Position numbers and translations under genes: made by a program. The notes under the pieces were generated by a model that was not told the DNA's origin, made no database searches, and saw only the letters and a program-made list of their open reading frames with translations. From a virus (taxonomy: Duplodnaviria; Caudoviricetes), in IMG/VR virus record IMGVR_UViG_3300032007_000067, positions 13,218-77,217 of that record: 64,000 bases of DNA. One strand, given 5' to 3'. Below are positions 9,682-63,003 of this stretch, one piece after another. The first letter of the stretch is position 1, and the number at the start of each line of letters is the position of its first letter.

Positions 9682-9885
9682 GACATACCTCTCAAAAACA
9701 CTAATAATCAGCAATCCTATCATAACGGAAAACGCACGTCATTATTTAGCGTTGTATCACAAAACAAAAATTTTTCCGTCTTTCCTGTCTGTTTTCGGTA
9801 CACTTTGTTTGTTGTTGTCTCATGCGGGTGATAGGATCTGCAATTACCCCTTTTCGGGGAAAGCAGTTTTTAAAAGGTGAATAAA

Positions 9886-11016
9886 ATGAAAGTAATAAAA
9901 AGGGACGGTTCCTCCGAAAACTGGAACCCTGATAAGATCAGACAGGCGGTGTCAAAAGCCGTTGTCAATCACGAGAACACGGAAAAAGCAGTTGCCATCG
10001 CTATCGACCGTATTCAATCCTCTTTTTGCACTATTGATGTAGAGACAATTCAGGATATTGTCGAGCAGGAATTAGGGTATAACGGCAATGTAAACACGCT
10101 CCGTAATTACGCTCATTATCGGGCTGAACGGGCGAACGTCAGAAGTGTAAATGCAATTCTGAATGATATTTACAAAAAGCAGGATTCCACTATTCTGAAT
10201 GAGAACGCAAATATTGACGGCGAGACAAACTGTGCAAAGCGTGATTTTATCGCCAGCGAGATCTGTAAACAGTGGGCTTTAACACACTTTCTTCCGAAGG
10301 ACATTGCCAACGCTCATATCCGGGGTGATATTTACATTCACGATCTCGGCTTTTCTCCCGCCGGTGGCTATATCAACTGCTGTCTTGTTAATATTAAAGA
10401 TATGCTCGAAAATGGCTTTACAATGGGAACTGCACATATCACAGAACCTAAATCCATTCGGGTTGCCACCAACGTTGTCGCTCAGATTATTACCGCTGTT
10501 TCTTCTCAGAATTATGGCGGTACGAGCGTTGATCGTATTGATGAAGTTCTTGCTCCTTACGTTGAAAAAAGCTATGAAAAGTATTGCAATGAAGTTCAGG
10601 AAGAATACGGGGATATTTGCGATGCTGATGTTAAGAAAATTGCCATGAAACGCACTGAAAAAGAATGTGAGGATGCGTTTCAGCAATTAGAATATTCCAT
10701 CAACTGCTCCCACAACTCTCACGCCCAAGTCCCGTTTGTAACATTAGGATTCGGACTGGGCGAAAGCAAGTGGGCGAAAATGATTCAGAAATGGATTCTG
10801 AACACCCGTATCAAAGGTTTGGGAAAAGAACGGAAAACCGCAATATTCCCGAAACTTGTATTTGCTCTGAAACGGGGATTAAACCTGACGCCGACAGATC
10901 CGAACTATGACATCAAACAGCTTGCATTAAAATGTTCAGCACGGAGAATGTATCCGGACATTGTAAGTTATGATAAGGTAACGGAGGTGACCGGCGGTTT
11001 TAAATTTCCGATGGGT
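9886..11016 (+). CDS. nrdD: anaerobic (class III) ribonucleoside-triphosphate reductase, exon 1
   Basis: ATP cone (KVIKRDG), NENAN, HIRGDIYIHDL, NCCL, QNYGG, IFPKL, RMYPD; ends at ..FPMG, ATG 9886 follows SD AAGGTGA. Confidence 0.95.
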
Positions 11017-11279
11017 GAACTTTAAAGACTGCCCATGTAAAACCTGTCTAAACAGGGGATCTCTTTTGAAATAAAGACAATCCTGTGCTAAATGACGAAA
11101 GTCTAAAAGCTAAACGACTAACCCTGATGAATGTAAGGGTGTAAGGTACAAGCAAATGGTATCTGAAATGATAGGCACTTATCATAAGATAAGCGAAGAT
11201 ATAGTCTGATCTGTATGGTGACATACAGCAGTTCATAAGAGAACGGGCGTGAACTTGCGATCCATGCCGAACACAAATG
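11017..11279 (+). mobile_element. group I self-splicing intron (263 nt, no homing endonuclease) in nrdD
   Basis: Removal restores PMG|CRSFL; exon ends in U, intron ends in G; IGS GCCCAT (11031-11036) pairs with exon ATGGGT giving the U.G splice pair; P4 CAGGGGA/TCCTG; P7 GACTA/TAGTC with AAGATATAGTC. Confidence 0.93.
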
Positions 11280-12263
11280 TGCAGAAGTTTCTTATCTGAA
11301 TGGACTAACGAAAAGGGAGAAAAACAGTATTCAGGACGTTGGAATTTAGGTGTGACAAGTGTTAATTTGCCCCGAATTGCCCTGAGACTCACCTCGGACA
11401 AAACAGAAGAAAGAATTGCCGAATACTTTCTTGAACTTGACAAGGTGAGTGAACTTGCTCACAAGGCTTTACAAATGCGGATTAAAAGGCTTTCCACTGT
11501 ACGGGCAAAACAGGCTCCTATCTGCTGGCAGTATGGGGCATTGACCAGACTGAAACCGGATGATTATATTCTGCCGTCATGTCAGAACGGACGGGCAAGT
11601 ATTTCCCTCGGCTATGTAGGCGTGAATGAAGCTGTGCATCAGATTTTTCTTTCCGATGATACGTTGCTTGAAAATGCCGAAATGAGAAAGGTAGCCGAGG
11701 ATATTGTGAAATTCCTTTCAGATAAATGCAAGGAATGGAAGGCGGTTGAACATTACGGGTATTCCCTGTATTCCACACCCGCTGAAAGTCTTGCTCATGT
11801 GTTTGAGAACAAGGACAGAAAAGAGTTCGGGGTTGTGAAGAATGTTACCGACAAGGAATATTACACAAACTCATTTCACCTTGACGTGCGGGTGAAAACC
11901 GATCCTTTTACAAAGATCGATTTTGAGTCTCCGTATCCTAAATGGGCATCCGGCGGGCATATTACTTATGTAGAGACCCGCAATTTAGAGGACAATCTGC
12001 CGGCACTGGAAGAACTGTGGGACTATGCTTATGACAAGGTTCCGTATTTTGCTATAAATGCTCCGATTGACTCATGCACCTGTGGTTTTCACGGTGAGAG
12101 TGTGTTTAAGGACGGCAATTTCACCTGTCCGAAGTGCGGTACATCCGATCCGGAAGAACTGCATTGCACACGCCGTATCTGCGGTTATCTTGGAGAAATA
12201 AACAGTCGGGGTGTGAATATCGGCAAGATTGACGAATTTCAGAAGCGGGTAAAGCATTGTTAA
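11280..12263 (+). CDS. nrdD: anaerobic ribonucleoside-triphosphate reductase, exon 2
   Basis: CRSFL, GRWNLGVTSVNLPR, YSTPAESL, YYTNSFH, GGHI, Zn ribbon CTCG..CPKCG, glycyl-radical loop RRICGYL. Confidence 0.95.
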   Translation, partial: CRSFLSEWTNEKGEKQYSGRWNLGVTSVNLPRIALRLTSDKTEERIAEYFLELDKVSELAHKALQMRIKRLSTVRAKQAPICWQYGALTRLKPDDYILPSCQNGRASISLGYVGVNEAVHQIFLSDDTLLENAEMRKVAEDIVKFLSDKCKEWKAVEHYGYSLYSTPAESLAHVFENKDRKEFGVVKNVTDKEYYTNSFHLDVRVKTDPFTKIDFESPYPKWASGGHITYVETRNLEDNLPALEELWDYAYDKVPYFAINAPIDSCTCGFHGESVFKDGNFTCPKCGTSDPEELHCTRRICGYLGEINSRGVNIGKIDEFQKRVKHC

Positions 12264-12940: not shown

Positions 12941-13165
12941 TCACCAAAAGTAATAACCCTGATCAAGGGGTTTTGCTTTTAGCCAAATATTCAGTTCTTT
13001 CATGTCGTATTTCAGTTTTTCATTCATTCTGCGAAGCTGAATAAGTCTGTTATTCAGGCAAGCCTGACAACCTTTATGGTTACGACAATACACGTCAAAG
13101 ACTTTAGATCCCCTATAAGGTTTCCTATGCTCTTTTCCATGTTCTATTGCTTTATCCAACGACAT
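12941..13165 (-). CDS. small basic hypothetical protein
   Basis: 74-aa ORF with GAGGAA SD, C-x4-C-x2-C pattern; last gene of the tRNA transcript. Confidence 0.65.
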   Translation of the reverse strand: MSLDKAIEHGKEHRKPYRGSKVFDVYCRNHKGCQACLNNRLIQLRRMNEKLKYDMKELNIWLKAKPLDQGYYFW

Positions 13166-13184
13166 AAAAATTCCTCAGATAGAT

Positions 13185-13251
13185 CCCGAAATATCGGACT
13201 CGAACCGATAACAATATCCTAGGTTTATTTTGCCTGTTAAACTAATTCCGG
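13185..13251 (-). pseudogene. tRNA-like element with shortened anticodon arm, no CCA
   Basis: 7-bp acceptor CCGGAAT/ATTTCGG, D arm, T arm ATCGG-TTCGAGT-CCGAT; only ~17 nt between D and T arms. Confidence 0.6.
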
Positions 13252-13292
13252 CGATCCATCTTAAATGACTCTTTCTCAAAAGCTATTTAAGA

Positions 13293-13377
13293 TGGTGGAG
13301 AGGGAAGGACTCGAACCTTCAAACCGCAAAGGGGGCAGATTTACAGTCTGCTGTCATTACCATTAGACAACCTCTCC
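13293..13377 (-). tRNA. tRNA-Tyr(GTA)
   Basis: Full cloverleaf, GCAGA-CTGTAAA-TCTGC anticodon arm, long variable arm, TTCGAGT loop, encoded CCA. Confidence 0.95.
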
Positions 13378-13381
13378 AAAA

Positions 13382-13455
13382 TGGCGGGGAATCGGGAATC
13401 GAACCCGTATTCTGACTGATCATTTCAGAACTCTCACCAGAGACTTTTAACCCCA
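13382..13455 (-). pseudogene. degenerate tRNA-like element (possible GAT anticodon)
   Basis: T loop TTCGATT and encoded CCA, but acceptor only 4 good pairs, 4-nt D loop, anticodon hairpin TTCTGA-AATGATCAG-TCAGAA. Confidence 0.5.
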
Positions 13456-13460
13456 TAAAC

Positions 13461-13535
13461 TGGTACACCCGACCGGATTCGAACCGGTATTACCACCGTG
13501 AAAGGGTGATGACCTGACCATTAGTCGACAGGTGC
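13461..13535 (-). tRNA. tRNA-Glu(TTC)
   Basis: Cloverleaf GCACCTG/CGGGTGT, TCACC-CTTTCAC-GGTGG, TTCGAAT, CCA. Confidence 0.95.
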
Positions 13536-13536
13536 A

Positions 13537-13610
13537 TGGTTGCGGGGCAAGGAGTCGAACCTTGAACTGAAGCTTATGAGACTTCAATGATACCCTTTCA
13601 ATACCCCGCG
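13537..13610 (-). tRNA. tRNA-Met(CAT), initiator-like acceptor
   Basis: CGCGGGG/CCCCGCA (C1.A72), GAAGT-CTCATAA-GCTTC, TTCGACT, CCA. Confidence 0.9.
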
Positions 13611-13615
13611 ATTAT

Positions 13616-13692
13616 TGGAGGCTCCCGGCGGATTCTGCCACCGCAGCTCGAGGCACTACAGCCTCGTATCCTTACTTTTGGACGACAGGAGC
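13616..13692 (-). tRNA. non-canonical tRNA (8-nt anticodon loop CTGTAGTG, T loop GGCAGAA)
   Basis: Acceptor GCTCCTG/CGGGAGC, D stem GTCC/GGAT, anticodon stem CGAGG/CCTCG, T stem GCGG/CCGC, 3' CTCCA. Confidence 0.65.
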
Positions 13693-13710
13693 AAAAATGT
13701 TCAGAGGAAA

Positions 13711-13797
13711 TGGCTACCCCGATAGAATCGAACTATCAAACATTGAAGGAAAGCTGACGAACAGTTGTTACCGATCATGTTGCAAACCTGCGGGGTC
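13711..13797 (-). ncRNA. tRNA-like RNA with acceptor/T-arm/CCA but no recognisable anticodon arm
   Basis: 5' GACCCCG pairs with 3' CGGGGTA; GATAG-TTCGATT-CTATC T arm; ends GCCA. Confidence 0.55.
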
Positions 13798-13804
13798 TTA
13801 AAAT

Positions 13805-13895
13805 GCGGAATCTGAAATCAGTTAAGTTATCAAACCGTTTTTGAGATAACGGCAAGGATAACCCGTTTTGAGATACGACTTCATTCAAACTCCGC
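13805..13895 (-). ncRNA. candidate structured ncRNA with two identical AUCUCAAA loops
   Basis: 12-bp closing stem GCGGAGTTTGAA/TTCAGATTCCGC; hairpins CGT-ATCTCAAA-ACG and CCGTT-ATCTCAAA-AACGG; GGTTATC/GATAACT stem. Confidence 0.55.
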
Positions 13896-14057
13896 TGGAC
13901 AGCAAAAAACTGAAACCAAATTAAGCGTCCGACAAGCGGAATCATTGTTACAGCCCGTTAAAAATCTGTCCGATCGGATTGTTTTTGCTAGGACAAACAC
14001 CGATCTTTTATCACGGTTTTTCTGTTTCGATACCTAGTGGAAACACGGATTATCTCA

Positions 14058-14086
14058 ACTTTATCACACTCAGAAACCCGTGTCAA
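14058..14086 (-). promoter_or_regulatory. promoter of the tRNA/ncRNA operon
   Basis: TTGACA-17 bp-TAAAGT with extended -10 TGn. Confidence 0.75.
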
Positions 14087-14121: not shown

Positions 14122-14213
14122 TTTTACAGCCTTACCTACTCAAATTCAATCCGGTTTAATGCGGTTTCAAACGCTCCGATTCCGGAGAACAAACTCAGTA
14201 ACTTTATCATAAA

Positions 14214-14399
14214 TCAAACCTCTTCCGGAACATCAGGCCAGTAAACAACCGTAACAACATAGATCTCTATGCGATCATTCCCTGTAACGGAAACATTAAT
14301 GCTTTTTACTTCAATATCGTTCTCCTCCAAAAACTTATTGACAGACGCCTCGGCTTTTGCGGCAGTAGCCGCCGAAAAGATTTTAATTCTCATATTCAT
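14214..14399 (-). CDS. small hypothetical protein
   Basis: 61-aa ORF with AAGGAG SD; KIKIF..VNKFLEEN..VKSI pattern common in small phage proteins. Confidence 0.65.
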   Translation of the reverse strand: MNMRIKIFSAATAAKAEASVNKFLEENDIEVKSINVSVTGNDRIEIYVVTVVYWPDVPEEV

Positions 14400-62073: not shown

Positions 62074-63003
62074 CTAACCCTCAGAATCAGTGTTTTTGGC
62101 ATTAGCAAAACACAATGCTTTCTTTGTCAGTTTTCCGAACAGCTTTGCAAAGTCAATTTCAGGGAAATTGAACTTAAACACCATATTTGCCGCTTCTTCT
62201 TTGATAAACTCACGGACAACAAGGTTTGCAAATTTCTGAGCTTTTACCGGGTTTTCCTTCGGGAATCTTTCAAGGTACTTGCAGTATTCTTTTTCAAGAT
62301 ACTCCTCGGAAAACCATTCATTAAGCACCGTTTCTAACATGTCAGTATGTGTAGCGTTCGGCTTTTCATAGACAATTTTAGCCCATGTGCATCTCCCGTA
62401 CTGATTGCCGGTCATGCCGTAATCTTTGATAACAAAACCTTCACCATGCGGGAAATTGCTTGTTACGGCAAAACGGGAAAACTCTTTATGAGTCTCGGTA
62501 AGATTATCCACCTCAGACGGCAGGATTTCAAGTGAAGGTACGAAGTCAATTCCCGCATTGACAAGGCTTATATTAAAATCATAAGGATTATACCAGTAGG
62601 CTTTGTTGTCAGCATACATAACGTATATATCAAACATGATAAAGGTGTTTTTCTTTTGCGGGATTATCTTGTATTTATTACCGGTGGCAAATTCACCGTA
62701 AAACACAACATGTTTCACCTCATAATCATTTTTAACGGCAAATGCAAGCCCTGTAAACGCATCTTCCCGCTCCTGAACATACTTTGCAAAACCGTAATTG
62801 TCATTTTCGATGGTCAAAAACCGGTTTCTGCTTCCCGCTTTTACGGTGCAAGTGCCATCATCAGAAAACTCGCAAACCACAACACCGTTCGTCCCGTCAA
62901 GTTTAGGCTGAACGGTAAGCGTATCGCAGTTCTTTAAATATTCAACTTCATCAGTTCCCCAGCGTTCAACGTGCTGATACTTTACATCTTTAAAATCAAT
63001 CAT
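62074..63003 (-). CDS. ATP-dependent RNA ligase (Rnl2-like)
   Basis: Motif I QPKLDGTN, SRNR, FYGEF, FIMFDIY, GEGFVIK, WAKIV. Confidence 0.85.
   Translation of the reverse strand: MIDFKDVKYQHVERWGTDEVEYLKNCDTLTVQPKLDGTNGVVVCEFSDDGTCTVKAGSRNRFLTIENDNYGFAKYVQEREDAFTGLAFAVKNDYEVKHVVFYGEFATGNKYKIIPQKKNTFIMFDIYVMYADNKAYWYNPYDFNISLVNAGIDFVPSLEILPSEVDNLTETHKEFSRFAVTSNFPHGEGFVIKDYGMTGNQYGRCTWAKIVYEKPNATHTDMLETVLNEWFSEEYLEKEYCKYLERFPKENPVKAQKFANLVVREFIKEEAANMVFKFNFPEIDFAKLFGKLTKKALCFANAKNTDSEG

Follow-up and report, generated by a model that had tools for sequence, protein, structure and literature searches.

A phage tRNA operon interspersed with putative tRNA-derived non-decoding RNAs

The 64,000-nt window analyzed here (positions 13,218 to 77,217 of IMG/VR virus record IMGVR_UViG_3300032007_000067; Caudoviricetes) is part of a 77-kb phage contig that is 88% complete and distant from any cultured phage (portal protein at most 44% identical to any); the phage is not T4-like. 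On the minus strand of this window, approximately 1 kb without convincing coding capacity lies between a 61-aa open reading frame (ORF; 14214-14399) and a 74-aa ORF (orf74; 12941-13165), both encoded on the same strand. In the direction of transcription, the region consists of a promoter, a leader, a twin-loop RNA and seven tRNA-shaped units, with a long hairpin within the array, and is followed by the 74-aa ORF. The strongest promoter-like site is oriented into the RNA region (14086-14058, minus strand) and belongs to the sigma-70 type (TTGACA-17-TAAAGT with a TG upstream of the -10 element; 10 of 12 matches). It is invariant in six of six aligned relatives, at 97-100% identity. No terminator-like site occurs before the one at 12972-12955, which is located past the 74-aa ORF and makes this ORF the last gene of the transcription unit, and the absence of internal promoter and terminator signals suggests that all units are co-transcribed with the tRNAs. 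This layout agrees with a first-pass annotation of the window, made from the sequence alone, which had described one minus-strand promoter driving a leader, a twin-loop RNA and seven tandem tRNA-shaped units.

Three of the seven units are canonical minus-strand tRNAs that are called by ARAGORN and matched by the Rfam tRNA model RF00005: tRNA-Tyr (GUA; 13293-13377; 59.9 bits), tRNA-Glu (UUC; 13461-13535; 59.3 bits) and tRNA-Met (CAU; 13537-13610; 48.3 bits). A unit was counted as canonical if it reached the Rfam gathering threshold of 29 bits or was called by ARAGORN at default settings. The remaining four minus-strand units, termed A (13711-13797), B (13616-13692), C (13382-13455) and D (13181-13257), do neither, and they were left unmatched by RF00005 even at E ≤ 10 in a search of 1.1 kb; both tools therefore uphold the earlier view that only Tyr, Glu and Met are canonical. 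With relaxed ARAGORN scoring, D was called as 'Pyl/cta' at ps90, exactly at the coordinates assigned to it before (13185-13251), A and C were called at ps80, and B was uncalled at every threshold tried.

A custom scan for a T arm combined with a 7-bp acceptor detects five units in the 1-kb region versus 0.125 in shuffled sequences. The T-loop word GGTTCGANTCC occurs in five exact copies in the window, all on the minus strand at 13196-13561, three of them in tRNAs and two in units C and D. The T loops of D (UUCGAGU), A and C (both UUCGAUU) follow the UUCRANY consensus, from which that of B (GGCAGAA) departs. Acceptor and T stem comprise 7 and 5 bp in D, 5-6 and 5 bp in A, 7 and 4 bp in B, and only 4-5 of 7 pairs and 4 bp in C. 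Three units do carry a CCA, as stated previously (GCCA in A and C, C-U-CCA in B, where it is offset by one), and D has none. The claim that all four keep the acceptor/T-arm shape does not extend to B, on account of its T loop and 4-bp T stem. An anticodon arm with a 5-bp stem, a 7-nt loop, U33 and a purine at position 37 was found in none of the four. The proposal that damage is concentrated in this arm does not apply to C, which is damaged in every arm and has the most normal anticodon arm of the four. Transfer-messenger RNA (tmRNA) was not detected by ARAGORN, also with -m at ps80, and Rfam matches no more than a 15-nt T arm. Unit A plus leader was considered as a tmRNA-like RNA and rejected: ARAGORN and Rfam give no support, and the short ORF of unit A is not conserved in its homolog in a related phage, G002.

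Moderately related phages in IMG/VR are limited to G001 and G002 (NrdD 76-78% identical). Closer relatives (L028-L033, L036, L039, L041 and L047-L049) were reached in public assemblies via homologs of the neighboring 220-aa (orf220) and 74-aa proteins. One of them, L041, was gained by a metagenome scan, and two further matches of that scan (L040 and L042) were discarded on reading as high-GC chance matches. The 220-aa gene has no relative in IMG/VR; exact and degenerate patterns for units C, A and D found nothing there besides G002, and the unit A pattern had no match among GTDB genomes. Against 50,697 phage records, blastn matched only the canonical Glu and Tyr and none of the aberrant units, and the units of G002 likewise found no match. 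The two most divergent close relatives are L032 and L033 (orf220 78-81% and orf74 84-87% identical). L036 is near-identical across the whole cluster, which reflects mosaic or recent shared ancestry of the segment.

Unit A folds into an acceptor of 5-6 bp, a D arm of 3 bp with a loop of 4 nt, a canonical T arm and a G-CCA end. Its center is a long arm that has no anticodon loop and terminates in a UNCGU loop on a 3-bp stem. Among relatives whose neighboring genes are 78-87% identical, the unit is 95-100% identical, and in L032 and L033 its identity of 96.6% lies above that of the flanking orf220 and orf74. Its T stem GATAG/CTATC is replaced by GATGG/CCATC, a compensatory change from A-U to G-C; L028 lacks a bulged A that the central arm otherwise has in its base helix; and the sole hypervariable base (U, G or A) is located in the loop of the UNCGU hairpin. 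A covariance model (R1) that was built from the close clade only finds a homolog at 30.3 bits (E = 1.2e-5) in G002 (NrdD 76% identical), with real tRNAs scoring at most 16 bits. This homolog of 105 nt has the 5' motif CGCAGRUUUGCRACAUGA in common with unit A, as well as the T arm and the G-CCA; its central arm is longer, and the sequences of its acceptor and T stem are different yet paired. In the resulting alignment, 99.2% of cells are paired, with five doubly changed pairs and 0 of 500 shuffles as high, and 24-50% of cells are paired in slid-partner controls; this is good but not conclusive evidence of covariation, since the alignment was fitted to R1 and its lineages are the clade and one outgroup. 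Besides the top half of the tRNA, a small D-like hairpin and the above motif, located in the junction, are conserved. R1 detected no unit A in G001 or G003-G006, and unit A matches no Rfam family. On the basis of this conservation and covariation, unit A can be said to define a small, putatively new RNA family.

Unit D pairs a 7-bp acceptor with a 5-bp T arm and a canonical T loop. The acceptor (CCGGAAU/AUUUCGG) continues past a 1-nt bulge into five more pairs of the flanks, giving a 12-bp helix, and a 35-nt central region with the conserved words GGAAUUAGUUUAA and AACCUAGG takes the place of the D and anticodon arms. Across relatives, the outer helix reads GGAUC/GAUCY, GGACU/AGUCC or CGGCU/AGCCG and the fourth pair of the T stem is G-C, U.G or U-A; in L047, three substitutions shift the bulge and all 12 bp are retained. 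Over five distinct sequences, which form three haplotype groups and hence few independent lineages, 98.8% of cells are paired, with five doubly changed pairs and 1 of 500 shuffles as high (slid-partner controls, 26-57%). Directly upstream, a 40-nt hairpin of 11 + 6 bp (13256-13295, minus strand; fold z-score -6.2), which the first-pass annotation had not listed, begins at the CCA of the preceding tRNA and sequesters it. Hairpin and D co-occur in every relative, whatever their position: the module follows Tyr or Ser in genomes of the window type and is found between Glu and Tyr in L033, L047 and L048. This placement led to the rejection of D as a 5' untranslated element of orf74. An internal promoter within D (TTAACA-16-GATATT) was also rejected, as its -10 element is not kept in L032. 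A separate observation concerns L049 (243-1805), in which an insertion element of ~1.5 kb lies in unit D at an invariant CCTAG(G), with CCTAG duplicated at both junctions. The element has terminal inverted repeats (AACTGTGCATAAAT) and encodes a 410-aa RRXRR and HNH (IscB-like) protein and an RNA of the HEARO/omega type (Rfam RF02033), whose 74 bits fall short of the gathering score of 83 bits.

Judged by these comparisons, selection appears to preserve the RNA structures of A and of D, the latter along with the hairpin upstream of it, and selection is supported for A and D only. What appears conserved in both is the top half of a tRNA, namely a T arm with a consensus loop and, stacked on it, an acceptor-like helix. 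The earlier suggestion of selected RNAs rather than random decay therefore stands for A and D, with their compensatory changes, and covariation across related phages is seen in their stems; it does not stand for C, whose variants are disruptive, and B cannot be judged from four near-identical copies.

Unit B is a cloverleaf with odd loops (fold z-score -2.5) and all of its stems are intact. Its anticodon loop CUGUAGUG has 8 nt (6 nt with an additional C-G pair), its D loop AAAAGUAA is devoid of GG, and a CUGC/GCAG hairpin is predicted to compete with the T arm. The unit occurs only as a cassette with tRNA-Met, in the window, L030, L036 and L041, and a single A-U to G.U change, compatible with wobble pairing, distinguishes the copies. 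An origin as a paralog of tRNA-Glu was rejected: the acceptor GCTCCTG is common to both, but the global score does not exceed that of shuffles. Unit C resembles a degenerate tRNA-Ile (GAU), which is its best global match among 47 distinct tRNAs, and its slot holds a canonical tRNA-Pro in L032. In addition to its deficient acceptor and T stem, it has a D loop of 4 nt and a 7-nt anticodon loop (AUGAUCA) with C37 that is closed by an A.G mismatch. Its variants include CCA to UCA together with G to A in the acceptor (L028) and U33 to C (L029). Because its defects affect all arms and its variants are disruptive and arise at approximately the background rate, C is probably a decaying or chimeric Ile-like tRNA. 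A specific homology to the unit C' of G002 was discarded, as the score does not rise above that of tRNA resemblance in general, and the high identity of B and C in L036 was discarded as a sign of selection, being due to mosaic ancestry.

The locus is subject to considerable turnover among relatives. Promoter, leader, unit A and tRNA-Glu are always present, and tRNA-Tyr is present wherever the contig extends to that part of the locus. Variably present are the twin-loop RNA, an extra element of ~135 nt, the B and Met cassette, unit C, tRNA-Pro, tRNA-Ser and other uncalled tRNA-like units; B with Met, the twin-loop RNA, tRNA-Ser, tRNA-Pro and the module of hairpin and D can each be present, absent or relocated. 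In L049 (20-97), a chimera begins with the 5' two-thirds of tRNA-Glu and passes, within the T arm, into the 3' part of unit C. This chimera is direct evidence that recombination in T arms generates aberrant tRNA-like units in the locus, and it illustrates a route by which mismatched acceptors can arise. The custom scan finds uncalled units with T arm and acceptor in every clade member, in G001 and in G002 (three units), and none in three control phage tRNA clusters. Further units of this kind were noted. G001 and G002 have in common a 103-nt unit (L020:1772-1875 and L019:1898-2004, both minus strand) that is uncalled by ARAGORN and Rfam and folds (z = -5.2) into a 7-bp acceptor, D and T arms and an anticodon arm of ~16 bp with a UUAAGU loop. 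L047 (1021-1136, plus strand) harbors an uncalled 115-nt tRNA-like unit with a 7-bp acceptor and a 6-bp T stem; its central word AGCGTGGGCTRTCTGAT..AAGTCCTTTGTAATTCT recurs after tRNA-Tyr in L047 (1425-1500, plus strand) and L048, and this element looks like another type of cassette.

The upstream part of the operon also contains structured elements. The leader (~157 nt; 13896-14052, minus strand) is 94-99% identical across all relatives (94-96% in L032 and L033), and RNAalifold predicts a fold with 43 pairs in which each of the four stem substitutions preserves a wobble pair and variation is otherwise confined to loops. It matches no Rfam family, nhmmer identified no homolog in more distant loci, and the leader may represent a new structured RNA in its own right. 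A 56-aa ORF in the leader (13775-13945) was dismissed, as it is disrupted in relatives by the 37-nt indel of the twin loop. The twin-loop hairpin RNA itself (13805-13895, minus strand; fold z-score -4.7) is an optional cassette found in the window, L028, L029, L030, L041, L047 and L048, and is replaced by a short hairpin in L032, L033 and L036. The complement of its loop motif (TTTGAGAT) was tried as an enriched target and rejected (6 matches versus 4.3 expected). The twin-loop word UUAUCUC (13840-13874) can form 7 bp with the 3' strand GGGGUAG of unit A (13711-13720), and CUACUUU likewise forms 7 bp with this strand in genomes without the twin loop; three to four of the seven pairs are G.U, and this alternative, longer 'acceptor' may be due to chance.

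The Cys-rich 74-aa protein encoded at the end of the operon has 516 homologs in the protein collection, none of them named, and belongs to no Pfam or PHROG family. Homologs are encoded immediately 3' of a tRNA-Met that closes a tRNA cluster in otherwise different phages (L035:2909-3237, L037:1310-1706 and L038:93-489), which suggests a recurrent association of this protein with tRNA operons. Elsewhere in the neighborhood, the gene for the anaerobic ribonucleotide reductase NrdD (9877-12263, plus strand) is interrupted by a group I intron (10997-11228; Rfam 69.6 bits) and thereby divided into two ORFs (9877-11025 and 11277-12263), and an equal split is present in L028, L030, L031 and L032. A 1.5-kb C5 DNA methylase gene (PF00145) is inserted between the 61-aa ORF and the promoter of the RNA operon in three relatives (L029:3827-5365, L033:3294-4865 and L036:404-1942). 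At this site (14136-14213, minus strand), the window has 13 nt instead, together with a 24-codon ORF that includes an FSGIGAFE motif; the 24-aa remnant (14139-14210) yields no BLASTP alignment with the L029 methylase. In L032 (3408-4934), a DDE transposase gene (PF01609) adjoins a truncated homolog of the 220-aa, methyltransferase-like gene.

The preferred reading, to be taken as tentative, is that of a mosaic RNA operon in which three working tRNAs are accompanied by four tRNA-derived, non-decoding units. The top half of a tRNA is recognized in bacteria by RNase P, by enzymes of the 3' end and in CCA maintenance, and the units are therefore probably excised and stabilized in the manner of tRNAs. 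The top half would thus act as a handle for the maturation enzymes of the host: RNase P would cut the 5' side, 3' trimming and CCA maintenance would then follow, and A, perhaps also B, would be excised from the polycistronic precursor as stable small RNAs. The function of A and B would then lie with a binding partner that reads the acceptor, T arm or elbow and not the anticodon. Unit D, because of its closed 12-bp helix and the lack of a CCA, would more likely represent a structural or processing module within the precursor that may act in cis, and C would have arisen as a by-product when cassettes were shuffled and T arms recombined at the locus. Cleavage by bacterial RNase P extends to many tRNA-like substrates other than tRNAs (PMC11143913). 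Several points weigh against this explanation. The stack of acceptor and T stem in A comprises 10-11 bp versus the canonical 12 bp, and the pairing of leader and trailer in D is expected to hinder rather than help cleavage by RNase P. D is deleted along with orf74 in L031 and split by the IscB/HEARO element in L049, and thus appears dispensable at least in some genomes. The covariation of both A and D comes from the few lineages described above, and the apparent conservation is inflated in some relatives by mosaic recombination, as exemplified by L036.

It is possible, although unlikely, that the clade keeps a whole family of such top-half RNAs, with acceptor and T arm, often also a CCA, and with a replaced decoding half. 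Transcribed together with real tRNAs and set free by host enzymes of tRNA processing, they would serve in trans as ligands or decoys of host proteins that recognize the acceptor or elbow. A would be the founding member, the units E and H, the C' unit of G002 and the module of hairpin and D would be others, and candidate targets would include MenT/AbiEii-type toxins, other tRNA-directed defenses and factors of tRNA quality control or sensing. Another explanation that is conceivable yet unlikely reduces units, hairpins and leader to punctuation in cis, needed only for processing and folding (RNase P, RNase III, RNase E) and for the stability of the orf74 message. Unit D suits this role with its closed helix, missing CCA and invariable position after a long hairpin that occludes the CCA of the preceding tRNA; in window-type genomes, it is found 15-20 nt upstream of the orf74 ribosome-binding site, and RNase P and RNase E are known to cooperate on polycistronic mRNAs (references in PMC11143913). 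However, the module does not adjoin orf74 in the three genomes that place it between Glu and Tyr, a mere cleavage signal would require neither the encoded GCCA of A nor its deeply conserved internal motif, and many phage tRNA clusters are processed without such units, as in the three control clusters that contain none.

That turnover of tRNA genes in a fast-evolving cassette array, through duplication, T-arm recombination and deletion, left all four units as functionless pseudogenes and chimeras is considered improbable. This scenario accounts for C, for the chimera that was formed through the T arm in L049, for the loss or disruption of D in L031 and L049, and for the conservation of B and C in L036, which stems from recent shared ancestry of the segment. 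It conflicts with the compensatory double changes in A and D, where 98.8-99.2% of cells are paired versus 24-57% with slid partners, with the intact stems of B, and with the conservation of A above the flanking protein genes and its retention in a phage as remote as G002.

Rather doubtful is the view that the units are decoys or sponges for tRNA-attacking defense systems, either anticodon nucleases (PrrC, RloC, VapC, PARIS or retron/Septu effectors), with repair by a phage ligase, or acceptor-end toxins (MenT/AbiEii). Phage tRNAs are thought to counter tRNA-targeting defenses (PMC10264068, PMC11464382), tRNA-Tyr is a known target of defense (PMC13096335) and the loop of unit B starts with CUGUA, as does that of the phage tRNA-Tyr. 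A decoy for anticodon nucleases must nevertheless mimic an anticodon stem-loop, and the idea is weak for these enzymes because A and D offer no anticodon loop; C presents U-GAU-CA. The first-pass annotation had put forward nuclease decoys as one candidate role, with an RNA ligase encoded at 62074 as the possible repair arm, and neither part gained support. The ligase gene exists (62074-63003), but its product is of the PF09414/phrog_548 type, it had no match in a PDB sequence search, and the gene is located 49 kb from the tRNA locus without an adjoining kinase gene. In the 88%-complete genome, neither a Pnkp-type kinase (PF13671, AAA_33; control genomes were matched) nor a CCA-adding enzyme (PolyA_pol) was found, and a search for Rnl1 (PF09511) was likewise empty, a weak result as its control matched nowhere; the T4-type pair of Pnkp and Rnl1 was not detected. 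No defense or anti-defense gene is linked to the locus. Readers of the acceptor end would fit the decoy idea better: MenT-family toxins, which are relatives of the abortive-infection protein AbiEii, modify tRNA acceptor ends (PMC7450476, PMC10435456), and A, B and C display ends of this kind. Finally, unusual decoding, with B reading quadruplets (+1 frameshift), D suppressing amber codons and C serving as a tRNA-Ile, is suggested by the 8-nt loop in the otherwise good cloverleaf of B and the relaxed ARAGORN anticodons of D (CTA) and C (GAT) but is highly improbable, given that ORFs of up to 1935 aa are open under translation table 11 without any sign of recoding, that the acceptor and T helices of D covary but its putative anticodon stem (read as CUA) is broken up in L032, that D has no CCA and a closed leader/trailer helix, that the D and T loops of B depart from the consensus on which the tRNA elbow depends, and that C combines C37 with a mismatched acceptor and a T stem of 4 bp.

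In phage tRNA clusters, annotation usually stops at the calls of tRNA finders, and the sequence between the calls is ignored. At the locus described here, at least two units between tRNAs are conserved and covarying, and they retain exactly the tRNA half that is read by processing enzymes and by several toxins, having given up the half that decodes. The locus also displays the origin and turnover of such units, with insertion elements, the exchange of cassettes and recombination in T arms as the routes. Provided that they are processed and stable, these RNAs would provide a natural example of tRNA-scaffolded small RNAs in a bacterial virus and a testable entry to the 50-year-old question of non-tRNA RNAs in phage tRNA operons, which goes back to RNAC and RNAD of T4.

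In comparison with known systems, the four units resemble canonical tRNAs (RF00005) in deriving from the tRNA fold, with a consensus T loop in A, C and D and a CCA in A, B and C. Phage tRNAs with substitutions in the anticodon loop have been proposed to escape host tRNases (PMC10264068, PMC11464382); these still decode and score as tRNAs, whereas A-D fail the tRNA model and A and D are without an anticodon loop. The repair of PrrC damage by T4 Pnkp and Rnl1 has in common with the present phage an RNA ligase in a tRNA-encoding genome, but the ligase here differs in type, is unlinked to the tRNA locus and is accompanied by no detected AAA_33 kinase. Modules that resemble tRNAs serve as processing handles in MALAT1 mascRNA, gammaherpesvirus TMERs and engineered tRNA scaffolds, and other tRNA-like substrates of RNase P include tmRNA and the tRNA-like structures of plant viruses (PMC11143913, PMC6926008). 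The proposed parallel is that a tRNA-like module recruits maturation enzymes and defines the ends of, or stabilizes, a non-tRNA RNA; these handles are eukaryotic, plant-viral or synthetic, and the conserved part of unit A is the tRNA-like core and not a cargo. The closest analogs are RNAC and RNAD (the stable RNAs 'species 1 and 2'), a pair of small RNAs without an assigned role that are produced from the T4 tRNA region together with its tRNAs (PMC3014915, PMC9697503). By blastn, no sequence relationship between the two sets was revealed, and the phage presented here has four units with a cassette-like pattern of presence and absence. Both cases concern non-tRNA RNAs that are embedded in a phage tRNA cluster; the present units lie behind one promoter with the tRNAs and are putatively co-transcribed with them. 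The locus can be described as a phage tRNA operon with apparently tRNA-derived, non-decoding RNAs, of which unit A constitutes a putative new RNA family.

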